Shown: positions 30,601-49,287 of the stretch, piece by piece
Numbering within the stretch: position 1 is the stretch's first letter
Layout of the letters: each line of letters opens with the position of its first letter
Assembly: GCA_043821025.1 (NCBI GenBank)
Contig: JBDRDF010000032.1
Span: forward strand, 11,261-75,260
DNA length: 64,000 nt
Reading direction: 5' to 3'
Origin: Candidatus Omnitrophota bacterium
GTDB lineage: Bacteria > Omnitrophota > Gorgyraeia > Pluralincolimonadales > CAZUZR01
Notes under the pieces: model-generated
Database searches by the model: none
The model's input: only the letters and a program-made list of their open reading frames with translations
Told to the model about the DNA's origin: nothing
Translations under genes and position numbers: made by a program

Positions 30601-30628
30601 TTGACAAAGTTTAATTTTTATGTATACT
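30601..30628 (+). promoter_or_regulatory. Sigma70-like promoter TTGACA-16-TATACT upstream of the Rrf2 gene, with an overlapping imperfect palindrome
   Basis: TTGACA is at 30601-30606 and TATACT at 30623-30628. ACTCTA-N11-TAGAGT lies at 30626-30648. Confidence 0.4.
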
Positions 30629-32809: not shown

Positions 32810-33208
32810 ATGCTTATCTTAGAAAAAGATTTATTAGAAAAGATGTTGCAGCAAATTAAAGAAGAATTTCCTAATGAGGCATGCGGAATTCTGGCAGGCC
32901 GAGAGGGAAGGGTCGAAAAGGTTTACAAAATGAGCAATACAGATAAAAGCCCTTCTACGTATTTTATGGATGCAAAAGAGCAACTTTTGGTAATGAAACA
33001 GATACGTAATTTAGGACTGGATATGGTCGGCATATATCATTCGCACGTCGCCAGTACTGCATACCCCTCTCTACATGATGTGGAATTGGCTTTTTATCCT
33101 GAGGTTTCGTATGTTATTGTGTCGTATAAAGACAAAGATAATTCCACTGTTAAATCATTTAAAATAAAAGAAGGAAAGATAATGGAAGAAGAGATAAAAA
33201 TAGAATGA
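32810..33208 (+). CDS. JAMM/MPN+ metalloprotease (Mec+/CysO-cleaving type deubiquitinase-like)
   Basis: It has the JAMM motif E(ACGILAG)...HSHVASTAYPSLHD. It is 132 aa. Confidence 0.7.
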   Translation: MLILEKDLLEKMLQQIKEEFPNEACGILAGREGRVEKVYKMSNTDKSPSTYFMDAKEQLLVMKQIRNLGLDMVGIYHSHVASTAYPSLHDVELAFYPEVSYVIVSYKDKDNSTVKSFKIKEGKIMEEEIKIE

Positions 33209-34236
33209 GCCTTATACTAGTTGGCACAAATCACAAATTTAGTCCGATTGAAATGAGGGAGAAAATCGCCTTTTCTAAAAAGATGCTTAATAATGCCTTG
33301 GCTGAATTGACGAGCTTTAAGTGGATTAAAGCAGCGGTTATACTTTCTACCTGTAATAGAGTAGAGTTGTACGCAGATACGTCGGACATTTATATGGGAG
33401 TTAGAGCATTGAAAGATTTTCTGTCAAGTTATCATCGCTTGGAATTGAATAAGATAGAGCCATATCTTTATACATATATAGATAAAGAAGCAATCCTACA
33501 TTTATTTAGTGTATCTAGTGGGATCGATTCTCAAATTATAGGCGAACACCAAATTCTAGAGCAAGTAAGAGTTGCCTATAAACAAGCAAGGGCAGCTAAC
33601 CTTACAAATCCATTTTTAGATACGATATTTAAAGAAGCGGAAAGGATTTCCTTAAAAATAAGACAAGAGACCGAAATCTCAAAAGATAAGACCTCCATAG
33701 CGAGAATAGTAATGGAACTTATAAGAACAAAAAGTGATTTTATCAAGGTTAAAAAGATATTGATTATCGGTGTAGGTAAGATATCCGAGTTAGTAGTTAG
33801 GCATTTAAAAAAAGAAGAGATAGATGTAGTCTTTATCGCCAACAGAACTTATGAAAGAGCGTGCCAATTGGCGAGATGCATTAATGCGAAAGCGATAGGT
33901 TTTGATAGGCTTAAAGAGAAATTAAAGGAGGTTGATATAGTCATCAGCGCAACCTCCAGTCCGCATTTGATATTAAAAAAGGAAGATCTGGTGGACGTTA
34001 AAAAGCCATTGCTGATTATCGATTTGGCTGTGCCACGGGATGTGGAGTCGGAAGCAAGATATATGGAGGGTATCGACCTTTTTTGTTTAGATGACTTGAA
34101 TTTTATAATAGAAAAAAATTTAAATGGAAGAAGACAACAGATTCCCAATGCTTTAAGGATTATAGAAAAAGAGGTAGAAAATCTGTGCTTAACAGAATAT
34201 TTAGAGTTGGAACTCGAACCAGTCCGCTTGCCCTAA
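33205..34236 (+). CDS. hemA: Glutamyl-tRNA reductase (HemA), short form
   Basis: It has the LSTCNRVELY catalytic-Cys motif and an NADPH-binding segment (LIIGVGKISELVVRHL). It overlaps the JAMM gene by 4 nt. Confidence 0.7.
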   Translation: MSLILVGTNHKFSPIEMREKIAFSKKMLNNALAELTSFKWIKAAVILSTCNRVELYADTSDIYMGVRALKDFLSSYHRLELNKIEPYLYTYIDKEAILHLFSVSSGIDSQIIGEHQILEQVRVAYKQARAANLTNPFLDTIFKEAERISLKIRQETEISKDKTSIARIVMELIRTKSDFIKVKKILIIGVGKISELVVRHLKKEEIDVVFIANRTYERACQLARCINAKAIGFDRLKEKLKEVDIVISATSSPHLILKKEDLVDVKKPLLIIDLAVPRDVESEARYMEGIDLFCLDDLNFIIEKNLNGRRQQIPNALRIIEKEVENLCLTEYLELELEPVRLP

Positions 34237-35243
34237 AGCAAGTCAATGAGGTCGTAACTTCTTTAAAGAGATTCTATCCAGAGTTCCAATTTGAGATAGT
34301 AGGCATAGATACATATGGCGATAAGGATAAGATTACTCCTATATCAGAAGTAGAAGGCAGCGATTTCTTTACCAAAGAGATAGATGAAGCCCTTTTAAAA
34401 GGGGAGATCGATTTCGCTATCCACAGCGCTAAGGATTTGCCTGATAATTTAGCGCCCGGCTCTTTTATCGCCGCTATTACTAAGTCCGTTGACCCATCTG
34501 ATGTGTTGATAGCAAGGGATAATTTGAAAATTGACGAACTCAAAACTGGGGCCAAGATAGGGACAAGTAGCCTAAGGCGCAAGGCCCAACTTAAAAACTA
34601 TCGTAAGGACCTTCAGATTATAGATATTCGGGGAAATGTTGAAGAAAGGTTGAAGTTACTAGATGAGACCGACTTAGATGGTATCGTCGTTGCTGCTGCG
34701 GGGCTTATTCGGTTGGGCTTAGAAGACCGTATAACCCAAAGGATTCCTTTTGATATTTTAAGACCTCACCCATTACAGGGCTCTTTGGCAATAGCAGTTC
34801 GTCAGGCTGACGAGGAAATAATATCTTTAATGGAGAAGATCGATTCCCGAAGGAAGATAATATTTATCTGTGTAGAAAACGCCTCTCGCAGCCAGATAGC
34901 CGAAGGATTCCTAAGACATTTTGGTTGGCAAAGATTCGTAGCCAGAAGCGGCGGAATTAAACCAGCGGATAAAATCGACCCATTAGCTATCGAAGTAATG
35001 AAGGAAGTGGAAATAGATATTTCCAAACAGAAGCCAAAACTAATTTCTAAAGATTTATTATCCGAGCAGTTGGTCACAGTTATTAGTATGGGTTGTTTAG
35101 AAAGCTGTCCTGCAATTAAGATCGATCAAAATTGGCAGATTGAAGACCCTAAAGGTAAGTCCATAGAAAGATTTCGCCGGGTTAGAGATATGATAAAAGA
35201 AAAAATAAAGAAGCTTACAGAAAAAGGATGCCATGGTTCATAA
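34185..35243 (+). CDS. Porphobilinogen-deaminase-like (HemC domains 1-2) fused to a LMW-PTP/ArsC-like domain; the HemC cofactor domain 3 appears absent
   Basis: The N-terminal 215 aa align to HemC (RVGTRTSPLALKQ...GTSSLRRKAQL...GNVEERLKLLD...AAAGLIRLGL). The C-terminus has a CX5R P-loop (IIFICVENASRSQIAEGF) and an MGCLESCP motif, in place of the dipyrromethane-binding domain. Confidence 0.5.
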   Translation: MLNRIFRVGTRTSPLALKQVNEVVTSLKRFYPEFQFEIVGIDTYGDKDKITPISEVEGSDFFTKEIDEALLKGEIDFAIHSAKDLPDNLAPGSFIAAITKSVDPSDVLIARDNLKIDELKTGAKIGTSSLRRKAQLKNYRKDLQIIDIRGNVEERLKLLDETDLDGIVVAAAGLIRLGLEDRITQRIPFDILRPHPLQGSLAIAVRQADEEIISLMEKIDSRRKIIFICVENASRSQIAEGFLRHFGWQRFVARSGGIKPADKIDPLAIEVMKEVEIDISKQKPKLISKDLLSEQLVTVISMGCLESCPAIKIDQNWQIEDPKGKSIERFRRVRDMIKEKIKKLTEKGCHGS

Positions 35244-35493
35244 ATTTCGTTGCCCAGGAAATATCTCTTTGAACTTAAAGGCAGAAATTCTTAGATGTCC
35301 AAAATGTGGCTACGAAGTAGAGATATTTTCTGATGAGCTTAGAAGAGTATGCCCCAAATGTACTACTGAAGTATATCGCAAGAGACTACCTTCCTGTATT
35401 GACTGGTGTCCTGCAGCAAGAGAATGTATTGGTGATAAAAAATGGAAGGAGTTAAAGATAGGGGGTAGAAATGAAAAAGAGAAAAATTATTAA
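35233..35493 (+). CDS. Small Cys-rich zinc-ribbon protein (hypothetical)
   Basis: It has CPKCGYEV...CPKCTTEV plus CIDWCPAAREC. It overlaps its neighbours. Confidence 0.3.
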   Translation: MVHKFRCPGNISLNLKAEILRCPKCGYEVEIFSDELRRVCPKCTTEVYRKRLPSCIDWCPAARECIGDKKWKELKIGGRNEKEKNY

Positions 35494-36265
35494 AATCGAT
35501 GAAGAAAAATGTAATGGTTGCGGAAATTGTATACCTGCTTGCCCAGAACAGGCCATACAGATCGTAGAGACTCCAAAAGGCAAAAAGGCAAGGCTGGTGA
35601 AAGAGTTTTACTGTGATGGGTTAGGCGCCTGCCTTGGAAGCTGTCCAGTAGGGGCGTTGACCATCAAAGAAAGAGAGGTTTTGCCCTACGATGAGGAGGC
35701 AACGATTGCCCATATAAAAGAAGTTGCTCCTGAGATGCTGAAAACACATTTAGAACACCTTAGAGACCATGCTCAAGAACTTCCCAGACATCATTCACAT
35801 AAGATGCCCAAGGGAATGACTGCTTGTCCTTCGGCTCAAATAATACACTGGGGAAGGGAAGAAGAAAAACCCATCACCCAGAAGGAAGTTAGCACTTCCT
35901 CCGAGCTTCGTCAATGGCCAATACAATTGCATCTTGTGAACCCAGATGCCCCTTATTTTAAAAATGCAGATTTAATCATTGTAGCTGACTGCGTTCCATT
36001 TGCCTATGCCGATTTTCATCAACATTTTTTAAGGAATAAAGCTGTAGCTATCGGTTGTCCAAAGTTAGATGACGTTGATGCCTATATTGAAAAATTGACC
36101 CAGATATTTAAGACCGCTAATCCCAGAAGCATAAAAGTTATTCATATGGAGGTACCTTGTTGCTTTGGTTTGCGCCATATAGTTGAGGAAGCGATAAAAT
36201 TGTCAGGCAAGAAGATACCACTGGAAAATGTTATTGTGGGGATAAAAGGCGAAATTAAAATATGA
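35471..36265 (+). CDS. 4Fe-4S dicluster ferredoxin-domain protein with a C-terminal domain of unknown function
   Basis: It has CNGCGNCIPACP and CDGLGACLGSCP, with additional Cys residues at the C-terminus (VPCCFGL). Confidence 0.45.
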   Translation: MKKRKIIKIDEEKCNGCGNCIPACPEQAIQIVETPKGKKARLVKEFYCDGLGACLGSCPVGALTIKEREVLPYDEEATIAHIKEVAPEMLKTHLEHLRDHAQELPRHHSHKMPKGMTACPSAQIIHWGREEEKPITQKEVSTSSELRQWPIQLHLVNPDAPYFKNADLIIVADCVPFAYADFHQHFLRNKAVAIGCPKLDDVDAYIEKLTQIFKTANPRSIKVIHMEVPCCFGLRHIVEEAIKLSGKKIPLENVIVGIKGEIKI

Positions 36266-37665
36266 ATAAAGTTAAGGTTTATTTAGTTGGAGCAGGCCCG
36301 GGAGGAAATGATCTAATAACTGTAAGGGGATTAAATACCTTAAGAGAGGCGGATGTGGTTATTTATGATTATCTTGTAGATAGAAAACTCTTACAGGAAG
36401 CAAAGGAAGGCGCAGAGTTAATCTGTTGCGATAAATTGAGAAAAAATAGATATTCAGACGGTTTTCTGATTCATCAAGAAAAGATAAATAAGCTTTTGGT
36501 TAAGAAGGCAAGGGAAGGCAAAAAGGTAGTCCGACTTAAAAATGGGGATCCTGTAATTTTTGGCAGGTTATCACAAGAGTTGGAAGCGCTCCTTAAAAAC
36601 AGAATAGAATTTGAGGTTATCCCAGGGGTGACAGCGGCAAGCGTTGCCGCTGGCTTAAGCGGCATTCCCTTGACTGACCGAAGATTCGCTTCTAGTTGTG
36701 TTTTTGTTACAGGGCACGAAGATCCAAGTAAAAGAACCAGTCTTTTAGATTGGAATAGCATAAGCAAGGTCGGCACAATAGTTTTGTATATGGCGGTTGA
36801 GAATGTTAACAAGATAGTTAAAAAGCTCATTAATGCTGGCAAGAACGAAGACGCCCCTGTAGCTATAGTTAAAGATGCCGGGCTACTTACCCAGAAGGTT
36901 TTGACAGGCACCTTAGGAAATATCGTTACAAGGGCTAAGGAACAAAATATAAAACCTCCAGCAATTATTATTATTGGCGAAGTGGTAAAATTAGAAAAAG
37001 AGTTTAACTGGCTTAAGAAGAATAAAAGGATACTTTTTACAGGGATATCGCCACAGAGATTTTTTGAGAAAGGAACTATTTTTCATCAACCACTTATTAA
37101 AATGGAGCCGCTCAATGATTACAAAGAATTTGATAAGGAGATTAGAAGCATCGATGGTTACGACTGGATAATCTTTTCAAGTCGATATGGCGTCCAATAT
37201 TTCTTTCAAAGGTTATATAAGATAGGTTATGACACAAGACGACTGAGTGAAGTGAAAATTGCAGCCATCGGTAATTCCACTCGAAACTGGCTTTTGGATT
37301 TCGGTGTTATTGCAGACGTCGTTCCGAAAGAGGAGTCTTCAAAAGGGCTGATAAATGAATTCAAGAAGATAGACATTAGAAATAGAAGGATATTTTTACC
37401 ACGCTCAGATATTTCTGATAAAGGACTTGCACAAGGGCTTTCATCATTAGGGGCCAAGGTTACTTCTTGTGTGGCTTATAAGAACGTAATGCCTGATAAC
37501 CTACCGGACTTAGACTTAAGATTTTTTGATGAGGTTATGTTTACCAGTCCCTCAGGTGTACGCAACTTTGTAAAAAGATATGGAACTCTGCCTAAAAGCG
37601 TTAAAGTAAGATGTATTGGAGACGTTACTTTTAAGGAAGCAAGAAGATGGCATTTATTAGGTTAA
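36262..37665 (+). CDS. cobA-hemD: Uroporphyrinogen-III C-methyltransferase (CobA/SUMT) fused to uroporphyrinogen-III synthase (HemD)
   Basis: The SUMT N-terminus reads VYLVGAGPGGNDLITVRGLNTLREADVVIYD. The C-terminal roughly 220 aa are HemD-like. Confidence 0.7.
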   Translation: MNKVKVYLVGAGPGGNDLITVRGLNTLREADVVIYDYLVDRKLLQEAKEGAELICCDKLRKNRYSDGFLIHQEKINKLLVKKAREGKKVVRLKNGDPVIFGRLSQELEALLKNRIEFEVIPGVTAASVAAGLSGIPLTDRRFASSCVFVTGHEDPSKRTSLLDWNSISKVGTIVLYMAVENVNKIVKKLINAGKNEDAPVAIVKDAGLLTQKVLTGTLGNIVTRAKEQNIKPPAIIIIGEVVKLEKEFNWLKKNKRILFTGISPQRFFEKGTIFHQPLIKMEPLNDYKEFDKEIRSIDGYDWIIFSSRYGVQYFFQRLYKIGYDTRRLSEVKIAAIGNSTRNWLLDFGVIADVVPKEESSKGLINEFKKIDIRNRRIFLPRSDISDKGLAQGLSSLGAKVTSCVAYKNVMPDNLPDLDLRFFDEVMFTSPSGVRNFVKRYGTLPKSVKVRCIGDVTFKEARRWHLLG

Positions 37666-38618
37666 AACGTTTAAGGAGGAATAACCAGATAAGGGAATTG
37701 TTCAGCCAAACTCAACTTCTGGCGAAAGATTTGATTATGCCTTATTTTGTAATGGAGGGTAGTAAAAAGAAAGTGCCCATTAAATCTATGCCTGGAATTT
37801 ACCGCTTATCCGTTGATAATTTAATTAAGGATATAAAGGAGGCCAAAAGTTTAGGTATAAAGGCAATCCTTCTTTTTGGGATATGTCGCAAGAAGGATGA
37901 AATTGGTTCAGAAGCTTATTCTTCAGATAGTATCGTTCAAAGAGCGATAAAAGCGGTAAAGAAAAATATAGAGGATATGGTTATCGTTACGGACGTTTGT
38001 TTATGTGGGTATACTTCCCACGGCCATTGCGGGGTTGTAAAGAACTCTTGTATAGATAATGATGAGACGTTGAAAGTTTTGTCTAAGATCGCTTTGTCTC
38101 ATGCTGAAGCTGGAGCGGATTTCGTGGCTCCATCTGCGATGATGGATGGACAGGTAAGAACCATAAGAGAAACTTTAGATAGAAACGGCTTTTCCGATAC
38201 AGGGATATTGGCTTATTCAGCTAAATATGCCTCAAGCTTCTATGTGCCCTTTAGAGAAGCCTTGGGCTCCGCTCCACAATTTGGAGATAGAAAGACATAC
38301 CAGATGGACTATAGAAATTCTGATGAGGCATTGAGAGAGATAGAACAGGATATCGAAGAGGGTGCGGATATAATTATGGCTAAACCAGCATTAGCATATT
38401 TAGATATTATCTCCAAAGCAAAACAAAATTTCAACATACCCATCGCTGCTTATAATGTCAGCGGAGAATATTCTTTAGTTAAGTTAGGAGCCAAAGCAGG
38501 CATAATAAATGAGCAAGAAATAACCTTAGAAATTTTAACTGCCATAAAAAGGGCAGGGGCAGATTTGATTATAACCTATCATGCAAAGGAAGTGGCTGGA
38601 TGGTTGAGGAATAAATAA
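37647..38618 (+). CDS. hemB: Porphobilinogen synthase (delta-aminolevulinate dehydratase, HemB)
   Basis: It has the zinc-site VTDVCLCGYTSHGHCG and an active-site Lys region. Confidence 0.8.
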   Translation: MAFIRLKRLRRNNQIRELFSQTQLLAKDLIMPYFVMEGSKKKVPIKSMPGIYRLSVDNLIKDIKEAKSLGIKAILLFGICRKKDEIGSEAYSSDSIVQRAIKAVKKNIEDMVIVTDVCLCGYTSHGHCGVVKNSCIDNDETLKVLSKIALSHAEAGADFVAPSAMMDGQVRTIRETLDRNGFSDTGILAYSAKYASSFYVPFREALGSAPQFGDRKTYQMDYRNSDEALREIEQDIEEGADIIMAKPALAYLDIISKAKQNFNIPIAAYNVSGEYSLVKLGAKAGIINEQEITLEILTAIKRAGADLIITYHAKEVAGWLRNK

Positions 38619-38619
38619 T

Positions 38620-39519
38620 ATGTTTCTGGTAGAAATCGGATATCAGATACTAAAAGAATTCTTTTCGCTAACATTCAAGGTTATTCCTTACTTTATGTTA
38701 GGAATTGCCTTTGGTGCGCTTCTGGAAGCGTATTTTAAACCAGAGTTCGTCTTTAGATACTTAAAGAAAGGAATTTCCTCGGTGGTTAATGCAAGTATTT
38801 TAGGAGCTGCTCTGCCGGGTTGCGCTTGTGTTACTATGCCAATGGCAGAGGGTTTAAAGAGAAAAGGCTCAAGATTAGGGACATTATCAGCGTTTATTAT
38901 GGTTTCACCACTTTTGAGTCCTCATACAGTTGTATTGACTTATGCGATGCTGGGTTGGAAATTTACTTTTGCCAGAATTATTTTCTCATTTTCAGGTGCG
39001 ATCCTTTTAGGAATTTTATTCAATTATTTTGAAAAGCGGCACGTAAAAGGTTTTGCTTTACCTGCTGAATCTGGGACCGAATGTAAATCTTGTCCTGACT
39101 TCGAGCAGGGCAAGAAATTAAGTTTTTTAAAAAGTTTTATCCTTATTGCCAAGAGCCTCGGTAAATATTTTTTCCTGGGCATGTTTATTGCCAGTCTCTT
39201 GACCGTTCTTATTCCTGAAGAGGCTATACCAAAATATATTGGCTCATCCGGCATATTCGCTTATCTGGCTGCAGCATTGGTAGGGATTCCGGTATATATT
39301 TGTGAAGGAGAAGAGATACCTATTACCTTAGCCCTATTAAAACTTGGTTTAGGCAAAGGTCCTTCTTTTACCTTTCTTTTAGGTTCGATAGGAACATGTA
39401 TTCCCACTATGCTTATGGCACAAAAGATAATTGGTAAGCGGCCAGTCATTTTTTATATTATTGGATGGTTTGTGTTTGCAATCAGTTCAGGGCTATTATT
39501 TAGTCTATTTTTCCATTAA
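38620..39519 (+). CDS. Putative permease (DUF318/YraQ-like) with a GCAC motif
   Basis: It has about 8 TM helices and an LPGCACVTMP motif. Confidence 0.4.
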   Translation: MFLVEIGYQILKEFFSLTFKVIPYFMLGIAFGALLEAYFKPEFVFRYLKKGISSVVNASILGAALPGCACVTMPMAEGLKRKGSRLGTLSAFIMVSPLLSPHTVVLTYAMLGWKFTFARIIFSFSGAILLGILFNYFEKRHVKGFALPAESGTECKSCPDFEQGKKLSFLKSFILIAKSLGKYFFLGMFIASLLTVLIPEEAIPKYIGSSGIFAYLAAALVGIPVYICEGEEIPITLALLKLGLGKGPSFTFLLGSIGTCIPTMLMAQKIIGKRPVIFYIIGWFVFAISSGLLFSLFFH

Positions 39520-39544
39520 AAAGATTGTAAATAGCGGTGTGTAA

Positions 39545-40798
39545 ATGAAAGTAATCTATTCTGGTAATCTTTTCCATGAAGCACAGAAGTATATCCCGGG
39601 TGGAGTAAATAGTCCTGTCCGGTCTTTCAGGGCTGTAGGTGGGTATCCAATATTTGTAAATCATGGGAAGGGTTCAAAGGTTTATAATGAATGTGGCAGG
39701 GAATTTATTGATTATTGCCAAAGTTTCGGTGCATTAATTTTAGGCCACGCTCACCCAAAAGTTGTACGAGAGTTAAGAAAGGTAGTTAACAAAGGTACCA
39801 CTTTTGGAACTCCAACAAAATTAGAGACAGAGTTAGCTAAAATTATCATCGAAGACGTTCCTTCGATACAAAAGATTAGGTTTACTAACTCAGGCACAGA
39901 GGCGGTAATGGGCGCGATCAGACTTGCCAGGGCTTATACAAAAAGAGATAAGATTATAAAATTCGAGGGCTCGTACCATGGTCATGCGGATTATTTATTG
40001 GATTGCGAAGGGGTTCCGAGGGATTTTACAAGGCACACATTAATTACCCCTTATAATAATATAAAGGTAGTTAAAGATTTAATAGAGAAGCATGAAGAGG
40101 ATGTAGCCGCAATAATCGTTGAGCCGATAGCAGCAAATATGGGGGTAGTTTTACCAAAAGATGATTTTCTAAGCGAGTTAAGAAAAATTGCTAGTAAATA
40201 TAATATAATTTTAATTTTCGATGAAGTTATTACTGGTTTTAGACTGATTTTTGGAGGCGCTCAGAAAATATTTGATATTAAACCGGATTTGACGTGTCTA
40301 GGAAAAATAATCGGCGGGGGATTACCGATAGGCGCTTTTGGAGGCAGAAGAGAAATTATGCAACTTTTGGCACCTGAAGGACCTGTCTATCAAGCAGGGA
40401 CTTTCTCAGGCAACCCTGTTTCTATGAGCGCAGGCATAAGTACGTTGAGGATTTTGCACGAATGTAATCCATATAGGAAGGTGGAAGGAATGACTAAATA
40501 TCTTTGTGGGAAAATTAAAGAGTACGCGAATAAACATAAGATCGGGATAGGAATAAATTCTTTTGGTTCCATGTTTAGTATTTTCTTTACAAATAAACAG
40601 ATAACGGATTATAGTATAGCTAAAGCCCAAGATACATCTTTGTTTAAAAAATTCTATCACGGTTTATTAAAAAACGGTGTTTATTTTTCGCCCTCAGGTC
40701 TTGAAGCAGATTTTATTTCGTTAGCACACACGCAAGAAGATATGCAGAAGACCTTACGGGCAGTTGATAAAACATTTAGAAATTTGAGGAGGAGTTAA
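39545..40798 (+). CDS. hemL: Glutamate-1-semialdehyde 2,1-aminomutase (HemL)
   Basis: It has the [18 protein letters not shown] signature. It is a class III aminotransferase. Confidence 0.8.
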
Positions 40799-40799
40799 A

Positions 40800-41939
40800 A
40801 TGGGCATAACCATTTATTTAAACGGCAAAAAAGAAACGGTCGAAGAAAATTTAAACATTTCGAAGCTCCTTGAGGTCAAGAAGATTAGGCCGGAAGTTGT
40901 AACGGTGGAATTAAATGGGCAGATTATCGAAAAGCCAAAATACGCAGATGCGTTTATAAAAGATAAAGATAAAGTCGAAGTCGTATATTACATGGGAGGC
41001 GGTATGCCTTTTAGCGACAGAATTGCAGAAAACGTTTTGGAACTAATCGGTCGAACGCCGATCGTTAGGCTAAATAAAATCATAGAATCAGATATGGCGG
41101 AGATATTAGCCAAACTAGAGCAATTTAACCCAGGAGGAAGCGTAAAGGATAGGATTTGTATCTCCATGTTCGAAGACGCAGAAAAGAAAGGCTTACTTAA
41201 AAAGGGCTCGACCATTATTGAGCCGACAAGCGGGAATACGGGAATTGGTTTAGCTATGGTTGCCGCAGTTAAGGATTATAGATGTATCCTTACTATGCCA
41301 GAAACGATGAGTTTAGAAAGAATATATATCCTTAAATCTTATGGCGCAGAGGTTGTGCTTACCCCAGGTGTCGAAGGCATGCAAGGAGCGATTAAAAAAG
41401 CAGAAGAATTGCTAAAAAAGACACCTAATAGTTTTATGCCCCAGCAGTTTAAAAATCCTGCAAATCCTCAAATTCACCGTTTAACTACTGCTAAAGAGAT
41501 ATTGGAAGCAACCAATGGAAACCTAGATGCCTTTGTTGCTGGTGTAGGAACTGGTGGTACAATTACAGGGGTAGGGGAGGTTTTAAAAAAACATAATGCC
41601 TCGATTAAGGTAATTGCAGTTGAGCCCAAAAAGAGCGCTGTTTTATCTGGAGGACAGGTTGGCCCACATAAAATCCAAGGCATCGGTGCCGGTTTTGTTC
41701 CAGAAGTTTTAAATCGTTCGATCATAGATCAAATAATCCAGGTTGATGACGACGATGCCTTTAGGACTTCAAGGAGGCTTGCAAAAGAGGAGGGTCTGTT
41801 TGTAGGTATTTCAGCAGGGGCTGCAGCTTGGGCAGCATTAAACGTCGCTAAGGATTCAGGCAAGGGCAAGAGGGTAGTCGTAGTTTTGCCAGATACGGGT
41901 GAAAGATATTTTTCTATGCATCAATATTTTGAGGCATAA
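40800..41939 (+). CDS. ThiS/MoaD-like sulfur-carrier domain (ending GGG) fused in-frame to cysteine synthase (CysK/CysM family); an internal SD+ATG at 41004 could also give free CysK
   Basis: The N-terminal 68 aa ([26 protein letters not shown]...[33 protein letters not shown]) fit the ThiS pattern. The cysteine synthase part follows ([24 protein letters not shown]). GGGAGG at 40994-40999 precedes ATG 41004. Confidence 0.65.
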
Positions 41940-41957: not shown

Positions 41958-42852
41958 GATGAAAACAAAAGATGCAAAAATAACCTTAGATTTGGACGAG
42001 TTTAGGAAGGGCGGAATTTTAAAACAAAGGCAGAAAAACTATTTTATCCTTCGAACTCGCATACCCGGTGGATATCTAAGGGCCGATATGTTGTCAAAAT
42101 TTATTCGAATCGCCAAAAAATATGGCAGAGGATATGTTCATCTCTCAACGAGGCAGGCTATAGAAATCGCCTGGATTAAAATAGAAAAAATAGATAACCT
42201 CATAAAGGACCTTAAAAGAGTGGGTATCTTAAGAGGTGCTTGCGGTCCGCGTTCTCGCAACATAGTGGCGTGTCCTGGCTCAACCGTTTGCAGGTACGGT
42301 TTTGCGGATACAGAAAAATTGGCTGCCAAATTCGATAAGTACTTTTTTGGCAAAGATGTTCCAAAGAAATTTAAGATAGGACTGACGGGTTGTCTTAATT
42401 CTTGTGCTAAACCCCAGGAAAACGATATTGGGTTTTTGGCTGTTGGTGAGCCCGAATGCGATTTAGACAAATGCACTGGTTGTATGCTATGTGCCAAGGT
42501 TTGTGAGAAGGTTTGCGCTCGAGGCAAAAGGGAACCTGCGATCGTCATGGATGAGAATAAGGAACCTGTATATAGAAGGGAGTTTTGCTTCTTTGAGGGT
42601 GATTGTGTAAGGATATGCCCAGTTAATGCCTGGAAAATAAAACGAGTAGGATATACGGTATTTTTAGGAGGGAGGGTCGGCCGTTTCCCTACGTTTGGGT
42701 TTAAAATAAAGGAATTTGCTACCGAACAAGAAATTTTTAAAATAACCAAAAGAGCAATAGCCTGTTATAACAGAATTGCCGAAAAAGGCGAGCGCTTCGG
42801 AGAAACTATAGAAAGGATAGGAATAGAAGGGGTAAAAAAACAGGTGCTATGA
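41958..42852 (+). CDS. Small siroheme-[4Fe-4S] sulfite reductase (AsrC/DsrA-like, with an inserted ferredoxin domain)
   Basis: The siroheme-FeS Cys motif is Cx5C...Cx3C (ACGPRSRNIVACPGSTVC, GCLNSCAKP). The ferredoxin insert reads CTGCMLCAKVCEKVC...CVRICP. Confidence 0.6.
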
Positions 42853-43091
42853 CAAAAATAAAAGTCGATCTAGTTTTAGATTTGAAAAATACACCTTGCC
42901 CAATAAATTTTGTTAAGACAAAACTAAAGCTCGAACAAATGAATAAAGGGGAGGTTTTAGAAGTCCTTTTAGATGACGGTGATCCCATCACTAATGTTAC
43001 CGTAAGCGTAAAAGAAGATGGGCATCAGATTTTGAAGGTCGAGAAAATAAATGACCATTGGAAATTGGTCGTTAAAAAAGTTGGAGAATAA
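42849..43091 (+). CDS. TusA-like sulfurtransferase / sulfur carrier (SirA/YedF/YeeD family)
   Basis: It is 80 aa. It has LDLKNTPCPINFVKTKL (CPxP-type motif). Confidence 0.55.
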   Translation: MTKIKVDLVLDLKNTPCPINFVKTKLKLEQMNKGEVLEVLLDDGDPITNVTVSVKEDGHQILKVEKINDHWKLVVKKVGE

Positions 43092-43096
43092 ATTAA

Positions 43097-43909
43097 ATGC
43101 GATTAAGGGAAGATCAAATTGAGAGGTATTCAAGGCAAATTATTCTACCTAATGTTGGTGGGAAAGGTCAGGAGAAGCTTTTGAGTGCCAAAGTTTTAAT
43201 CATTGGCGCAGGAGGCTTGGGTTCTCCTTGTGCTTTATATTTGGCCGCGGCAGGCATAGGGAAAATTAGCATAGTAGACTCAGACGAAGTCGAGCTTAAT
43301 AATTTACAGAGACAAATCTTGCATTCAACCAAGGATGTAGGTAGGTCGAAAACAGAATCAGCAAAAGACAGGCTCAATGCCATTAATCCAGATTTAGAGG
43401 TCATAACTTATAAAATCAGGCTCAAGTCGGAGAATATCTTAGATATCATAAAGGATTATGATATAATTGTTGATGGCTCAGATAACTTTCCTACAAGGTA
43501 TTTAGTCAATGATGCCTGTGTTCTTTCGAAAAAGCCTTTATCTCATGGGGGCATATTTAGATACGATGGGCAGGCGATTACAATTCTTCCAGGTGAAAGT
43601 GCTTGTTATAGATGCCTATTTCCTACTCCCCCTCCGCCTGGACTTGTGCCAAGTTGCCAGGAAGCCGGGATTTTAGGCGTAGTTGCCGGAGTCATTGGCA
43701 CTATTCAGGCAAACGAAGTTTTAAAATATATATTAGGAATCGGAGACCTTTTAGCCGGAAAGCTGTTGGTATTTAACGCCTTAGATTCAAGCTTTAGACA
43801 AGTGAAGGTTCCAAAAGATCCTAAATGTCCAGTTTGTGGAGAAAATCCCACGATAACAAAATTAATAGATTATGAACAGTTCTGTAGCTTACAAATAAGG
43901 AAGGTGTAA
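43097..43909 (+). CDS. ThiF/MoeB/MoeZ-type E1-like adenylyltransferase (no rhodanese domain)
   Basis: It has the nucleotide loop VLIIGAGGLGSPCALYLAAAGIGKISIVDSD. The zinc motif is CYRC...CPVC. Confidence 0.7.
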   Translation: MRLREDQIERYSRQIILPNVGGKGQEKLLSAKVLIIGAGGLGSPCALYLAAAGIGKISIVDSDEVELNNLQRQILHSTKDVGRSKTESAKDRLNAINPDLEVITYKIRLKSENILDIIKDYDIIVDGSDNFPTRYLVNDACVLSKKPLSHGGIFRYDGQAITILPGESACYRCLFPTPPPPGLVPSCQEAGILGVVAGVIGTIQANEVLKYILGIGDLLAGKLLVFNALDSSFRQVKVPKDPKCPVCGENPTITKLIDYEQFCSLQIRKV

Positions 43910-43911
43910 AG

Positions 43912-45147
43912 TTGAGCTACGTAAGAGGCTTAAAATGTAGGGAATGCGGAAGGGAATATCCGAAAGAAGCGCTCTTCGTTTGCGAATATTGCTTCGGCTC
44001 TTTGGAGGTGGACTACGACTACTCTGCGATAAAGAAGAAACTGACACGCGAGGTAATTGCATCTCGTTCGAAAGATCTGTGGAGATACCAAGAGCTGTTG
44101 CCGCTCGATTCAAAGCCGCAGGATGGTTTATATTCGGGTTTCACGCCGCTTATAAGGTCAACGAATTTGGCGAAGGTATTGAAAGTAGACGAACTTTACA
44201 TAAAAGATGATTCCGTCTGCCATCCGACGCTTTCATTTAAGGATAGGGTTGTATCGGTTGCAATTTCAAAGGCAAAGGAGTTTGATTTCTCTGTTGTTGC
44301 ATGTGCTTCAACCGGAAATTTGGCGAATTCGGTCTCCGCATTAGGCGCTATCGCCAGATTAAAGCGTTATATATTTATCCCTGCCGATTTGGAATTGGGA
44401 AAGGTAGTCGGCTCTTTAATTTACTCCCCGAATTTAGTTGCAGTCGAAGGAAATTACGACGAGGTGAACCGACTCTGCGCCGAAATTGCGTCGAGATATA
44501 GATGGGCATTCGTCAATATAAATATCAGGCCATATTATGCTGAGGGTTCAAAGACCTACGGATACGAGATTGTAGAACAATTGGGTTGGAGGACGCCAAA
44601 ACATATCATAGTTCCGGTTGCGGGCGGTTCCTTAATCTCAAAGATTTGGAAAAGCTTTAAAGAATTTCAAAAATTAGAGTTGATCAACAAGATTGATACA
44701 AAAGTTTATGCGGCGCAACCAACAGGATGTTCGCCAGTCGTAACAGCGATAAAGGAAAATTCCGATATAATCAAACCTGTTAAGCCGAAGACGATAGCGA
44801 AATCACTCGCCATAGGAAATCCGGCGGACGGATATTATGCGGTCCAGACCGTAAAGGATTCAGGCGGATGGGCAGAAGATGTAACCGATGAGGAAGTAAT
44901 CGAAGGGATAAAATTGCTTGCCGAGACCGAAGGAATATTTACCGAAACTGCAGGAGGAGTTACAGTAGCAGTTGCAAAGAAATTAATCGAACAAGGTCGA
45001 ATCCCTCGGGATGAATCCATTGTAATTTCAATTACGGGCAATGGCTTAAAAACGCAGGAGGCAGTCCAGGAACATATAGGAAGGGCCGTTAAGATAAAAC
45101 CTACCCTTGCATCTTTTGAAGAACAGGTAATGGTGAAAGGGAAATAA
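43912..45147 (+). CDS. Threonine-synthase-like fold-type II PLP enzyme with an N-terminal zinc ribbon (candidate sulfur-carrier-dependent homocysteine or cysteine synthase)
   Basis: A TTG start is preceded by AAGGAAGGTG. It has CRECG...CEYC and the PLP-lysine motif HPTLSFKDRVVS. The overall sequence is ThrC-like. Confidence 0.55.
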   Translation: MSYVRGLKCRECGREYPKEALFVCEYCFGSLEVDYDYSAIKKKLTREVIASRSKDLWRYQELLPLDSKPQDGLYSGFTPLIRSTNLAKVLKVDELYIKDDSVCHPTLSFKDRVVSVAISKAKEFDFSVVACASTGNLANSVSALGAIARLKRYIFIPADLELGKVVGSLIYSPNLVAVEGNYDEVNRLCAEIASRYRWAFVNINIRPYYAEGSKTYGYEIVEQLGWRTPKHIIVPVAGGSLISKIWKSFKEFQKLELINKIDTKVYAAQPTGCSPVVTAIKENSDIIKPVKPKTIAKSLAIGNPADGYYAVQTVKDSGGWAEDVTDEEVIEGIKLLAETEGIFTETAGGVTVAVAKKLIEQGRIPRDESIVISITGNGLKTQEAVQEHIGRAVKIKPTLASFEEQVMVKGK

Positions 45148-45165
45148 AAATAAAGGAGCGTGCAT

Positions 45166-45441
45166 ATGGCGATTAAAGTAAGAATACCACAACCACTACA
45201 AGGTTTGACGAACCACCAACCTGAGGTTGAAGCTACCGGAACGACCGTGAAAGAATTAATTGATGATTTAGAGCACAAATACCCCGGCATCAAAGACAGA
45301 ATCTGCGATGAATCAGGCAAAGTGCGAAGGTTCGTTAATTTCTATGTCAACGAAGAAGACATAAGGTTTTTGGAGCGGGAACAAACGAAGTTGAAAGACG
45401 GCGATGAAGTTTCAATAATTCCGGCAATCGCCGGGGGATGA
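45166..45441 (+). CDS. CysO/MoaD/ThiS-like ubiquitin-fold sulfur carrier protein with a free C-terminal GG
   Basis: It is 91 aa and ends ...VSIIPAIAGG*. SD sequence AGGAG lies 8 nt upstream of the ATG. Confidence 0.6.
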   Translation: MAIKVRIPQPLQGLTNHQPEVEATGTTVKELIDDLEHKYPGIKDRICDESGKVRRFVNFYVNEEDIRFLEREQTKLKDGDEVSIIPAIAGG

Positions 45442-46193
45442 AAATGATGGAAGTAGAGCTCACCGCAAAAGACAGAGAAAGATATAACAGACAGATGTTT
45501 ATCGAGGACTGGGGCGAAGCGGGACAGAAAAAGCTAAAGAATGCCGAGGTTTTTATCTCAGGCGTAGGCGGTTTAGGAAGCCCCGTCGCTATATATCTTG
45601 CAGTCGCAGGGGTAGGCAAGATAAGGGTATGCGATTTTGATGTACCAGAACTTTCTAATCTAAATAGGCAGATATTGCACCACGATGCTCGCATAGGCCT
45701 TAATAAAGCACTTTCTGCAAAAAAGACGTTAGAAGTTTTAAATCCTACGGTGGAAATTAAAGAATTCCCTGAAAGGATAGAAGCTGATAATGTCGATAAA
45801 TTAGTTGGCACAAGTCAGATAATCATCGATTGTATGGATAATTTTGATACGCGTTTAATCCTAAATGAATGCGCCATACGAAAAAAGATACCTTTGGTAT
45901 TTGCGAGTGTTTGGGGCTTGACCGGTTATTTAAGTTTTTTTCATGTGCCTGAAACTCCCTGTCTTGCATGTATATTTAGAGAACCACCCCCTAGAGAGAA
46001 ATTTCCTGTAGTAGGAGCGACCCCTGGGGTAATCGGTTGCTTGGAGGCGCTCGAAGTATTAAAGTATATTACCGGCATTGGTCAGAATTTAAAAAATAAA
46101 CTTTTAATTTGGGACGGGACTACTGTGGATTTTAGAAAAGTCTCCATTAAATATGATAAAGATTGTCCCGTATGCGGCACTTTACACCGTTAA
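45438..46193 (+). CDS. Second ThiF/MoeB-type E1-like adenylyltransferase
   Basis: It has VFISGVGGLGSPVAIYLAVAGVGKIRVCDFD. The zinc motif is CLAC...CPVC. It overlaps the carrier gene by 4 nt. Confidence 0.7.
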   Translation: MKMMEVELTAKDRERYNRQMFIEDWGEAGQKKLKNAEVFISGVGGLGSPVAIYLAVAGVGKIRVCDFDVPELSNLNRQILHHDARIGLNKALSAKKTLEVLNPTVEIKEFPERIEADNVDKLVGTSQIIIDCMDNFDTRLILNECAIRKKIPLVFASVWGLTGYLSFFHVPETPCLACIFREPPPREKFPVVGATPGVIGCLEALEVLKYITGIGQNLKNKLLIWDGTTVDFRKVSIKYDKDCPVCGTLHR

Positions 46194-46208
46194 AGAGGAG
46201 GTAAAGAT

Positions 46209-46449
46209 AATGGCAAAGAAGATGGTGCATTTAATATTCCCCCAAAAGTTGATTAAGAAGGCAGTCATTTATACTATGGCAAAAAAATTTGACGTTATCC
46301 CCAATATCCGCCGCGCGAAGATTACCGAATCGGTTGGGGAGGTTGTATTAGAACTTGAGGCATCGAAGGATAATTTAGAGAAGGGTATAGCATATTTAAG
46401 GAAGTTGGGTGTTAAAGTAGAGCCTATTGTCGGGGATATCGTAGAGTAA
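46209..46449 (+). CDS. Small ACT/NIL-like domain protein (hypothetical)
   Basis: It is 80 aa (MAKKMVHLIFPQKLIKKAVIYTMAKKFDVIPNIRRAKITE...). SD sequence GAGGAGG is present. Confidence 0.3.
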
Positions 46450-46475
46450 ATTAAGAGTTTCCTTTTTAGATTTAA

Positions 46476-46514
46476 GAGCCAGCTCCATTAAAAGGGGCTG
46501 GCTCTTATTTTTTC
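46476..46514 (+). terminator. Rho-independent terminator of the sulfur operon
   Basis: The stem is AGAGCCAGC/GCTGGCTCT (46476-46484 and 46498-46506) with a 13-nt loop, followed by TATTTTTT. Confidence 0.65.
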
Positions 46515-46545: not shown

Positions 46546-46574
46546 TATACTGGTATTGGGTATAGGTGAGAAAA

Positions 46575-46844
46575 ATGATTAACGGCGCTACAAAACAAAA
46601 TGCTTTAGTAAGGCTTAAGAGAATCGAAGGCCAAATTAAGGGCGTACAGCGTATGATCGAAGAAGAGAAATACTGCGTTGATATCATCAATCAGATAAAC
46701 GCTGTGAGAAGGGCTCTTGAACAGGTGGCCTTGTGCGTTATGAAACGCCATGTCGATTCATGCGTTTCCGAAGCGATTAAGAAAGACAAGGCTGGCGGAA
46801 AAGTAGAAGAACTTATGGAAACCATCGATAGGTTCATAAGGTGA
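46575..46844 (+). CDS. csoR: CsoR/RcnR-family metal-sensing repressor (copper-sensing type)
   Basis: It has the DUF156 fold and C-H-C ligand positions (YCVDIINQI...H...C). Confidence 0.7.
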   Translation: MINGATKQNALVRLKRIEGQIKGVQRMIEEEKYCVDIINQINAVRRALEQVALCVMKRHVDSCVSEAIKKDKAGGKVEELMETIDRFIR

Positions 46845-46849
46845 AGTAA

Positions 46850-48124
46850 ATGCCTTTTAAAACGATGAAGAAATTTTTTATCTTATTTTTGGTTAATGCA
46901 TTTTTATTAAACTATAGTTTGTTGTACTCTTCTGAGGCGCTTCCTTTAGATTCCCTCATTAAAGAGGCAAAGGAAAAGAATCCAGGGATTTTAGCAGCAA
47001 AGAAAAACTGGGAGGCATCTTTAACAAGAGTGCCTCAGGCGAAGTCTCTTGAAAGTCCCACTATAGGTTTTACTTTTATGAAGATACCTAAAGGCACATT
47101 AAAATTAGACAAGACAATATCCGAGGACCGCATGTTATCAATTTCCCAGTTCTTACCTCTATTTGGCAAATTATCTTTAAAAGGCAAAATCGCATTGGTT
47201 GAATCACAGATGTTCGCCGCTGAATATAGAAACAAAGAACTAGAGATTATAAACGAAGTTAAAAACGCCTATTACGATTTATTTATGAATTATAAGGAAA
47301 TAGAATTAAACGAGCAGAGCCTTAAATTTTTAGTGGGCATCGCCAAAATTGCTGAAGCGAAATATATAGTGGGAGAAATTTCGCAGGAAGAGATTTTTAA
47401 AATAAATCTCGAAATAGCCAGTCTAAGCAATAATATTGCTAATCTGAGACAGGAACAGTTGGCGAAGATAACGCGGATAAATGCTTTGCTAAACCGAGAT
47501 CCCGAAAGCCCCTTAGTTATTGCAGAGTTACAAGAAGACGCATCTTTTAATATAGATATAACATATTTATACAAACTTACCTTAGTGAATCAACCAGAAT
47601 TGCTAATCTTTTCTTATGCGATAGAGAGAAATAAATACGCCAAGTCCTTGGCCGAAAGAAATTATTTGCCGGATTTAATGGCACAAATTGCACTTCGCGG
47701 TTTTACCGGAGGCATTGGCCCTTGGGATTTGATGTTAGGTTTTACTTTACCTTTTTGGTTCTGGACAAAACAGCGTTATGAAGTAAAGGAAGCGATTGCT
47801 AATATAGATGAGGCAAATGCAGCTTATCAGGCAATGAAGAATAGGTCATTATCCGAAACCAAGGATTTAGCCACAAAAGTAGAAATTGCCAAGAATAAGA
47901 TTAAACTATATAAAACTAATTTGATACCTATATTAGAAAGTTCTATTGAGTCTTCTTTAGCAGGTTTTCGTTCAGGAAGAGGTGATTTTATGATGATCTT
48001 AGACAACGAAAGGATGCTTATTGAGACGAAAATGGACTATTATAAATCATTGGTTGAATATAATACGAATTTAGCGGATTTAGAAAGGACTGTAGGTATA
48101 GATTTAAAAGGGGTGATAAAATGA
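46850..48124 (+). CDS. TolC-like outer-membrane efflux protein
   Basis: A signal peptide is present. It has two OEP repeats. Confidence 0.6.
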   Translation: MPFKTMKKFFILFLVNAFLLNYSLLYSSEALPLDSLIKEAKEKNPGILAAKKNWEASLTRVPQAKSLESPTIGFTFMKIPKGTLKLDKTISEDRMLSISQFLPLFGKLSLKGKIALVESQMFAAEYRNKELEIINEVKNAYYDLFMNYKEIELNEQSLKFLVGIAKIAEAKYIVGEISQEEIFKINLEIASLSNNIANLRQEQLAKITRINALLNRDPESPLVIAELQEDASFNIDITYLYKLTLVNQPELLIFSYAIERNKYAKSLAERNYLPDLMAQIALRGFTGGIGPWDLMLGFTLPFWFWTKQRYEVKEAIANIDEANAAYQAMKNRSLSETKDLATKVEIAKNKIKLYKTNLIPILESSIESSLAGFRSGRGDFMMILDNERMLIETKMDYYKSLVEYNTNLADLERTVGIDLKGVIK

Positions 48125-49272: not shown

Positions 49273-49287
49273 CCTTAAAGAGGTAAT

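Follow-up and report, generated by a model that had tools for sequence, protein, structure and literature searches.

The genome of a Candidatus Omnitrophota bacterium (GenBank assembly GCA_043821025.1, contig JBDRDF010000032.1, positions 11,261 to 75,260; these 64,000 nucleotides are hereafter called the window) encodes a six-gene module at window positions 42849-46449 that is built around a threonine synthase (ThrC)-like pyridoxal 5'-phosphate (PLP) enzyme and a small sulfur carrier protein ending in Gly-Gly. From family membership, gene context and analogy we consider it quite likely that these two proteins constitute a thiocarboxylate-dependent homocysteine synthase of the MetM/MetO type. 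In Streptomyces albulus, as summarised for Hasebe et al. 2024, the ThrC homologue MetM makes homocysteine from O-phosphohomoserine and the thiocarboxylate of the carrier MetO with MoeZ and Mec as helpers, and an S-adenosylmethionine (SAM) riboswitch is located 5' of metM. An earlier, sequence-only reading of the window had noted that ThrC-like/sulfur-carrier pairs are reported for methionine biosynthesis in actinomycetes; the S. albulus pair is this precedent. Judged by its sequences, the module of the window is a member of the same kind, and four traits make it a variant: a NIL partner protein, two ThiF/MoeB-type adenylyltransferases (E1s) without a rhodanese domain accompanied by TusA, the absence of a riboswitch, and its embedding among sulfite and siroheme genes.

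The six genes are all on the + strand, co-directional and tightly packed, and open reading frames (ORFs) together with Pfam and NCBIfam domains bear out the gene content given by the sequence-only reading, namely TusA, an E1, a zinc-ribbon ThrC-like enzyme, a carrier ending AIAGG, a second E1 and a NIL protein; the Pfam domain E-values are far beyond chance. The first gene (42849..43091) encodes a TusA/SirA-type sulfur-relay protein of 80 amino acids with a Cys17-Pro motif (Pfam TusA, E 5e-21), and its ATG overlaps the stop codon of the preceding sulfite reductase gene (ATGA). It is followed by E1a (43097..43909, 270 amino acids; Pfam ThiF, E 8e-88) and by the ThrC-like, predicted MetM-type PLP enzyme (43912..45147, 411 amino acids; Pfam PALP, E 1e-66), the gene of which starts at TTG 43912 behind an AGGAAGG ribosome-binding site. 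The CysO/MetO-type carrier of 91 amino acids (45166..45441; Pfam ThiS, E 1e-19) begins 18 bases past the ThrC-like gene: its ORF opens at GTG 45160, and ATG 45166 is preferred on the evidence of the ribosome-binding site and the homologues. E1b (45438..46193, 251 amino acids; Pfam ThiF, E 3e-71) comes next, and the last gene of the operon encodes the stand-alone NIL protein (46210..46449, 79 amino acids; Pfam NIL, E 9e-16). The NIL ORF opens at 46153; the real start is ATG 46210, behind a GAGGAGG ribosome-binding site, from which the protein has 79 amino acids like its homologues. An intrinsic terminator on the + strand (46473..46507, a 14-bp stem followed by a T-run) closes the operon directly 3' of the NIL gene.

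The ThrC-like protein has an N-terminal zinc ribbon (residues 1-55) with a CxxC...CxxC motif formed by C9/C12 and C24/C27, and it carries HPTLSFKDRV at residues 104-113, in which K110 of the SFKDR motif is the PLP lysine. Its identity with the structurally characterised ThrCs 6cgq, 1uim, 2zsj and 2d1f is 33-37%, from residue 56 onward only, and its AlphaFold2 model (predicted local distance difference test score, pLDDT, 82) matches ThrC structures with target-normalised template modelling (TM) scores of 0.82-0.85. The cysteate synthase model TIGR03844 matches residues 7-195 with 64.4 bits against a cut-off of 324.9; NCBIfam contains no dedicated MetM model.

A neighbour-joining tree of 27 ThrC-family sequences (200 bootstraps), in which canonical ThrC was set by a solved structure or a hom-thrC-thrB operon, separates the window protein from threonine synthases. 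It clusters with 19 other proteins at 200/200 bootstrap with all canonical ThrCs outside, and the clade includes a gene of Nonomuraea gerenzanensis, described below, as well as five genes linked to SAM riboswitches. The canonical ThrCs are likewise united at 200/200, in a clade of their own that comprises B. subtilis, T. thermophilus, the Priestia hom-thrC-thrB sequence and the second copies of L012 and L015 (L numbers denote individual loci). Phylogeny, which the sequence-only reading had named as a check on the enzyme, places it with the actinomycete pair under a SAM riboswitch and apart from canonical ThrC. Five invariant motifs of canonical ThrC (PTGSFKDRG, STGNT, SVNPYR, GNAGN and ATAIRIGNP) are all replaced in the window protein and in the whole clade: PTGSFKDRGM becomes PT[LFYH]SFKDRVV, STGNT becomes STGNL, VN-SVNPYRLEGQ becomes VNINIRPYYAEGS, GNAGN becomes A[GS]GSL and TIATAIRIGNP becomes TIAKSLAIGNP. 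T88, S155 and R160 of T. thermophilus ThrC presumably help to hold the substrate/product phosphate, which is used for the addition of water at the beta carbon; loss of their counterparts would fit a switch to gamma-replacement. The zinc ribbon itself was rejected as a diagnostic of MetM, as haloarchaeal thrC genes that have no carrier neighbour encode it too. The proteins of these haloarchaeal genes (L087, Haloterrigena turkmenica pHTUR01, 3995-5254, and other megaplasmids) are ~36% identical to the window enzyme, fall between the MetM-like clade and canonical ThrC in the tree, and have intermediate motifs (PTGCFKDR, STGNA).

We scanned the GTDB species genomes with two clade-specific peptides, PYYAEGSK and EI[AV]EQ[LM]GW, and found more than 600 stretches among the matches listed. 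The best 80 of these were taken as loci, and the window proteins were compared by BLAST with all ORFs of the loci. In the best 80 loci the ThrC-like protein is 56-73% identical to that of the window, and the loci represent more than 10 phyla: Planctomycetota, Omnitrophota, Desulfobacterota, Nitrospinota, Nitrospirota, Verrucomicrobiota, Methylomirabilota, Chloroflexota, Elusimicrobiota, Acidobacteriota and Actinomycetota. A homologous carrier gene lies just 3' of the ThrC-like gene in 69 of 75 loci (92%). In the 40 loci whose flanks are long enough, an E1 gene occurs within 4.5 kb in 18, a CysK gene in 18 and a JAB gene in 13. Rfam was run on the 21 loci in which the ThrC-like gene opens the operon, and in 17 of them a SAM-I riboswitch is found directly 5' of that gene (Verrucomicrobiota, Planctomycetota, Chloroflexota, Kiritimatiellae and others). 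One Acidobacteriota locus (L056) has no SAM-I riboswitch directly 5' of the ThrC-like gene and carries a SAM-II (SAM_alpha) riboswitch (6737-6810) ~1.2 kb 5' of it, with one gene between.

The best PLSDB match to the window enzyme (49% identity over 99% of the length) is encoded by N. gerenzanensis, in an 11.8-Mb chromosome record. The locus consists of a SAM riboswitch (RF00162, 68.7 bits), a zinc-ribbon ThrC-like gene and a gene for a 91-amino-acid carrier that ends AVAGG and is 51% identical to the carrier of the window; it has no NIL gene. This is the layout published for S. albulus, as summarised, in a member of the same clade as the window enzyme. Nonomuraea encodes a canonical ThrC elsewhere in its genome, 61.6% identical to that of T. 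thermophilus, and in the Thermodesulfovibrionia loci L012 and L015 a canonical ThrC that has 59% identity to the Priestia enzyme is encoded immediately 3' of the ThrC-like, carrier and NIL genes. The separate canonical thrC that the sequence-only reading had thought worth looking for is, therefore, present in these relatives. Apart from Nonomuraea, tblastn searches of PLSDB for Streptomyces metM returned only canonical-type matches below 40% identity, and when the Nonomuraea protein was used as query against protein records, all matches were from Streptosporangiales and named threonine synthase; GapMind describes MetM as frequently misannotated in just this way. No homologues of Hom or ThrB (BLAST with Priestia queries) were found in the window or near any of ~85 loci.

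The riboswitches in 17 of 21 loci and the carrier in 69 of 75 thus point to methionine rather than threonine. Taken together with the adjacent canonical ThrC, they show the predicted place of the ThrC-like family to be in methionine, not threonine, biosynthesis, and in partnership with the carrier. The chemistry proposed earlier for the window enzyme, in which a protein thiocarboxylate acts on O-phosphohomoserine to give homocysteine, gains support from this riboswitch control and carrier linkage, from the clade and from its replaced motifs.

The carrier also fits such a role. Its best solved relatives are CysO proteins (4n6e_B, E 1.4e-21; M. tuberculosis 3dwg_C, E 2.9e-20), MoaD and SAMP structures match at only about 1e-7, and the moaD equivalog TIGR01682 gives 29 bits, well under its cut-off of 66; the free carrier that had been called MoaD/CysO-like from its sequence is of the CysO type rather than the MoaD type. 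MoaE was not seen in the annotated neighbourhood of the module. The window carrier stops right after AIAGG, and is therefore already mature, with no need for C-terminal trimming. Of 76 carriers in the family, 40 have Gly-Gly as their very C-terminus, 25 continue for 1-7 residues and 10 are fused to another protein, which is NIL in nine cases and an E1 in one. Since many family carriers extend past Gly-Gly, a JAMM maturase is needed; Mec is reported to mature MetO in S. albulus (Hasebe et al. 2024, as summarised). The carrier::NIL fusions (L006, L007, L008, L009, L011, L013, L036, L040 and L042) are polyproteins in which a carrier ending AIAGG, a short linker and NIL are all in-frame, and the carrier::E1 fusion (L016, 9235-10299) is from one Actinomycetota metagenome-assembled genome.

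Several observations weigh against a MetM/MetO-type function. The window protein scores above the threshold of the thrC equivalog TIGR00260 (285.7 bits, cut-off 167.1); riboswitch-linked metM-like proteins likewise exceed this cut-off, and TIGR00260 thus does not discriminate the two paralogue types. The 64-kb window contains no hom, thrB, metE/metH or second thrC, so neither a supply of O-phosphohomoserine nor a separate ThrC is evident there. The connection to the characterised MetM runs through an actinomycete proxy that was set by riboswitch and synteny. The cyanobacterial homologue from Microcystis, ~52% identical to MetM, is summarised as a threonine synthase and deaminase in vitro, with a MetM role in vivo that is not clear. 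Finally, the window has no SAM riboswitch (no Rfam match); the Microcystis homologue, according to the same summary, has none either, and the riboswitch is therefore a common and not an obligatory feature.

One way to accommodate the sulfur genes without a carrier-dependent enzyme is an O-phosphohomoserine sulfhydrylase that takes free sulfide, the carriers and E1s then serving only cysteine synthesis or other thiolations. The sulfite reductase encoded in the same operon would suit such an enzyme, as would the closest relative of the window, SM23_29 (see below), in which one carrier is shared between a CysK-like and a ThrC-like protein; Na2S has also been tried as donor with the Microcystis MetM homologue, with a reportedly ambiguous outcome. 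We nevertheless regard free sulfide as an unlikely donor: the tightest and widest linkage is that of the ThrC-like gene with the carrier gene behind it, often as a two- or three-gene riboswitch operon without CysK, and S. albulus MetM, as summarised, uses the MetO thiocarboxylate.

A second alternative is an ordinary threonine synthase of a long, zinc-ribbon form next to which the carrier would be meaningless. Every database does name the protein threonine synthase, its fold is that of ThrC, it passes TIGR00260, haloarchaea have zinc-ribbon ThrC homologues that lack a neighbouring carrier gene, no other thrC is found in the 64-kb window, and the Microcystis homologue is summarised as having ThrC activity in vitro. 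Against this, the clade stands apart at 200/200 and has replaced several conserved motifs of canonical ThrC, the control in 17 of 21 relatives is by a SAM riboswitch and not threonine-related, the carrier gene follows in 92% of loci, canonical ThrC coexists with the ThrC-like protein in Nonomuraea and Thermodesulfovibrionia, and neither hom nor thrB is found near the ~85 loci, all of which makes a housekeeping threonine synthase decidedly improbable.

It is more improbable still that the enzyme acts on O-phosphoserine, either as a carrier-using, CysM-like cysteine synthase or, with sulfite, as a cysteate synthase, even though cysteate synthases derive from ThrC and have the N-terminal region in common with the enzyme (TIGR03844, residues 7-195), sulfite metabolism is adjacent and the fold agrees well with that of the CapA2 structure over the full length: TIGR03844 gives 64 bits against 325, a dedicated CysK is already present, and the SAM riboswitches point to methionine and not to cysteine or sulfonates. 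That the carrier, E1 and JAB serve molybdopterin synthesis, tRNA thiolation or ubiquitin-like conjugation is hardly credible, for although the carrier scores close to the SAMP1 cut-off (56.7 bits, cut-off 60) and exceeds that of an archaeal MoaD-family subfamily, and MoeB/UbaA models match the E1s, the carrier reaches only 29 of the 66 bits set for the moaD equivalog, the best solved relatives are CysO, no MoaE or molybdenum cofactor genes were found in the neighbourhood, and the conserved partners are PLP enzymes.

If the enzyme and carrier act as a MetM/MetO-type homocysteine synthase, the steps of the pathway may be proposed by analogy with CysM/CysO/Mec, HcyS/HcyD/MetY and MetM/MetO. E1b, and possibly E1a, would adenylate the C-terminal glycine of the carrier, as expected of the ThiF/MoeB family. 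CysH and the siroheme sulfite reductase encoded in the same operon would make sulfide, which would convert the carrier acyl-adenylate to the thiocarboxylate, perhaps via a persulfide on Cys17 of TusA, as gene context and the logic of type-4e operons suggest. The ThrC-like enzyme would bind O-phosphohomoserine and eliminate phosphate as ThrC does, and the carrier thiocarboxylate would then be captured at the gamma carbon, replacing ThrC's addition of water at the beta carbon, in the manner of MetM/MetO and CysM/CysO. Following an S-to-N acyl shift, the JAMM protein (32810-33208) would, like Mec, hydrolyse the carrier-homocysteine amide to give free homocysteine and a recycled carrier. NIL may sense methionine or homocysteine, or it may dock the carrier; this is the least certain step. 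A ThiS::CysK fusion encoded upstream would form a parallel cysteine arm, in which JAB would be needed to free ThiS from CysK. E1, TusA, JAMM, CysH, sulfite reductase and siroheme genes are found in one operon, as in published sulfur-assimilation operons.

The module shares with MetM/MetO a ThrC-homologous PLP enzyme encoded directly 5' of a small Gly-Gly carrier, control by a SAM riboswitch (in the window's relatives), the need for an E1 and a JAMM hydrolase, and the threonine synthase label. It differs in that the window has no riboswitch, lies within a sulfite/siroheme operon with a Rrf2-family gene at the head, has rhodanese-less E1s and TusA in place of MoeZ, and adds a NIL partner, while its carrier needs no C-terminal trimming. 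The CysM/CysO/Mec/MoeZR system of M. tuberculosis has in common with it the carrier family (CysO 3dwg_C, E 2.9e-20) and the logic, in which an E1 makes the thiocarboxylate, a PLP enzyme uses an O-phospho amino acid as substrate and a JAMM protease releases the product. However, the M. tuberculosis enzyme has the CysK/CysM fold and acts on O-phosphoserine, whereas that of the window has the ThrC fold with O-phosphohomoserine as presumed substrate, and MoeZR has the rhodanese domain that the window E1s lack. The HcyS/HcyF/HcyD/MetY system of Wolinella succinogenes and the type-4e operons (Iyer et al. 2006) share a ThiS/MoaD-like carrier, a rhodanese-less E1, SirA/TusA, JAB, 3'-phosphoadenosine 5'-phosphosulfate (PAPS) reductase and sulfite reductase; these are sulfate/sulfite-assimilation operons that make homocysteine, and ThiS-type carriers of this family likewise have C-terminal extensions to be trimmed. 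In Iyer et al. 2006, SirA with a rhodanese-less E1 is the pattern of the type-4e sulfur-assimilation operon (carrier, E1, SirA, JAB). The C-S bond-forming enzyme in Wolinella is the O-acetylhomoserine sulfhydrylase MetY (fold type I), while that of the window is of the ThrC type (fold type II). Canonical ThrC (TIGR00260; 6cgq, 1uim, 2zsj, 2d1f) has the same fold, the same SFKDR motif with the PLP lysine and probably the same substrate, O-phosphohomoserine; the window enzyme adds the zinc ribbon, has replaced motifs near the cofactor, and keeps other genomic partners and regulation.

The two E1s of the module have different affinities. Neither has a rhodanese domain by Pfam, and with scores of 352 and 193 bits for the MoeZ model NF005902 (cut-off 647) neither is an E1-rhodanese of the MoeZ type; the window has a TusA gene in place of one. 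Rhodanese-less E1s with TusA beside a module of this kind were not found in the literature searched. E1b, which has GxGxxG and CxxC...CxxC motifs, is 90% identical to the sole E1 of WOR_2 SM23_29 (L085, contig LJUB01000042.1), the closest relative on record, the ThrC-like protein of which is 94% identical to that of the window; to every other E1 sampled it is at most 44% identical. E1b is thus the predicted resident activator of the carrier. E1a, 41% identical to E1b, is absent from SM23_29 and is 83-87% identical to the only E1 of three other Omnitrophota loci (L001, L002 and L086), which carry heme genes, ThiS::CysK, sulfite reductase and TusA.

These two matches indicate that the window combines a resident unit (ThrC-like enzyme, carrier, E1b and NIL) with an added block (heme genes, ThiS::CysK, sulfite reductase, TusA and E1a), the latter being absent from SM23_29. 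The SM23_29 locus is compact, with PiT, Rrf2, JAB, CysK-like, ThrC-like, carrier, E1 and NIL genes, hence one carrier and one E1. Nucleotide synteny between the two amounts to 66-82% identity, and the window has in addition a region at ~10.5-29.6 kb (carbohydrate-binding and PEP-CTERM proteins), CysH-PiT, the heme genes, sulfite reductase-TusA-E1a and Cus/CopA; the locus looks mosaic. Of the module as originally delimited, the six genes stand but their unity does not, since by synteny and identity TusA and E1a group with the upstream block.

A similar layout with two E1s and two carriers is found in nine Nitrospirota loci, and the paired order of ThiS/CysK-E1 followed by ThrC-like-carrier-NIL-E1-JAB recurs in that phylum. 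This recurrence makes the earlier idea of separate cysteine and homocysteine arms plausible. As SM23_29 manages with a single carrier and a single E1, however, carriers may be cross-used between the two arms.

The NIL protein belongs to a conserved family of 79-amino-acid proteins (Pfam PF09383, 57.9 bits, cut-off 24). A fold search was needed, because a sequence search of the PDB with this protein gave nothing significant. The NIL model (pLDDT 88) superposes in Foldseek on the C2 domain, which binds methionine, of the E. coli methionine importer MetN (3tui, 3dhw) with TM scores of 0.84-0.86 and a root-mean-square deviation of about 1 Å, and the next fold matches are ACT domains. In contrast to MetN C2 and to the DUF39 NIL-ferredoxin, it is a stand-alone protein of 79 amino acids or a carrier fusion, with no ABC ATPase or ferredoxin. 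The NIL gene is behind the carrier gene in 48 of 72 loci, NIL is fused to the C-terminus of the carrier in nine, and in relatives of the window NIL genes sit within SAM-riboswitch-controlled operons. A different NIL protein, NIL-ferredoxin, is reported to be genetically required in the unrelated DUF39 homocysteine pathway; no paper tying NIL to MetM/MetO was found in the literature searched. From its modelled fold, NIL is probably a methionine/homocysteine sensor or a dock for the carrier.

We tentatively put forward a broader proposal, that outside actinomycetes MetM/MetO may be a three-component system with NIL as the third component, co-transcribed under the same SAM riboswitches and in some lineages made as a carrier-GG-NIL polyprotein that would be cut by JAMM like ubiquitin fusions. 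If this is true, NIL would gate the charging of the carrier or the activity of MetM by methionine or homocysteine, or would escort the carrier, and it would recur as a module in two unrelated homocysteine pathways, including DUF39/NIL-ferredoxin.

The clade labelled "threonine synthase", with more than 600 stretches among the matches listed and more than 10 phyla, is probably the homocysteine synthase of a recently described methionine route. Scoring such genes as ThrC would miscall methionine auxotrophy, and possibly threonine prototrophy, in Omnitrophota, Nitrospirota, Nitrospinota, Verrucomicrobiota and others. While the carrier-dependent route itself has been known from Streptomyces since 2024, the NIL partner and the rhodanese-less E1s with TusA are new relative to the described MetM/MetO. 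Leads on the regulation of the pathway and on ubiquitin-like precursor processing in bacteria come from NIL as a recurrent partner and from the fusions of carrier with NIL, carrier with E1, and ThiS with CysK. In the window, a single operon would provide a complete and self-contained carrier-based sulfur assimilation, in which adenosine 5'-phosphosulfate (APS) reductase, siroheme synthesis, sulfite reductase, TusA, the E1s and JAMM together supply two carrier arms that lead to cysteine and to homocysteine.

The module is the tail of this operon, a sulfur-assimilation operon of ~16 kb, as follows from the minimally gapped sulfur genes upstream on the same strand (all genes below are on the + strand). 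At its head are genes for a Rrf2-family regulator (30658-31098; Pfam Rrf2) and a CysH-type APS/PAPS reductase (31115-31840; Pfam PAPS_reduct). A promoter-like site before the Rrf2 gene (30601-30628) matches 11 of 12 consensus positions and is one of the two best of the region, both of them intergenic and with 11/12 matches; overall, promoter-like sites in the region are not above chance (39 against 45 expected). PiT-type transporter genes lie in this upstream part, one an intact paralogue (29614-30588) and the second split in two, with the halves of a PiT/PHO4 protein (a candidate sulfate permease) in ORFs 31756-32382 (N-terminal) and 32422-32808 (C-terminal); the split could be due to a frameshift, a pseudogene or an assembly error.

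A Prok-JAB (JAMM) metalloprotease with an intact HSHx7Sx2D motif follows (32810..33208; Pfam Prok-JAB, E 9e-23). By analogy it is a candidate equivalent of Mec/HcyD that would release the homocysteine or cysteine attached to the carrier and separate ThiS from CysK, and its gene is conserved at the cluster head in L002, L085 and L086. The tetrapyrrole genes (33205..40798; Pfam) encode HemA, HemC, a CysG-type methylase::HemD, HemB and HemL, with a Fer4 protein and an ArsP-type permease interspersed; they are predicted to supply the cofactor of the sulfite reductase, and their order 5' of the module is the same in L001, L002 and L086. HemC (34185-35243) is apparently fused to a LMWPc (low-molecular-weight phosphatase/arsenate-reductase-like) domain, which HemC of L001 and L002 lacks, and the protein of 264 amino acids encoded at 35471-36265 among the siroheme genes has an N-terminal 2x[4Fe-4S] ferredoxin domain and no domain assignment beyond it.

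The ThiS::CysK fusion (40800..41939; Pfam ThiS and PALP; TIGR01139 cysK, 468 bits) has a ThiS part that ends ...YYMGGG and runs straight into cysteine synthase (YYMGGG|MPFSDR), and the fusion is also present in L001 (7697-8854) and L002 (7753-8889). Separate ThiS genes (L030, L033, L034, L046, L047, L075 and L008) encode proteins that end GGG plus 1-2 extra residues. With ThiS either fused or extended past GGG, this type of carrier is therefore, it seems, always made as a precursor requiring C-terminal cleavage, presumably by JAB. Such processing resembles that of HcyS-Ala by HcyD and of eukaryotic ubiquitin fusions. Between the fusion gene and tusA, a small siroheme-type sulfite-reductase-like protein with a ferredoxin insert is encoded (41959..42852; Pfam NIR_SIR_ferr, NIR_SIR and Fer4); it is AsrC-like by NCBIfam with a score under the family cut-off, and is the presumed source of sulfide for the carriers. 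The order sulfite reductase-TusA is kept in L001 and L002, and in L086 the two are fused.

Copper/metal-efflux genes flank and interrupt the sulfur operon (38620-39519, 46566-52551 and 54050-56254). An ArsP/SO_0444-like permease (38620-39519) is encoded between hemB and hemL, and CsoR, TolC, CusB and CusA are encoded directly 3' of NIL, with CopA farther on. In L086 (12536-18971) the ArsP/OEP-CusB-CusA set is likewise right behind the NIL gene, and this adjacency thus recurs. A GalT/HIT-family protein with DUF4921/DUF4931 signatures is encoded near the module both in the window (53023-54045) and in L085 (10027-11055), and a role as a nucleotidyl or sulfate-related transferase is conceivable.

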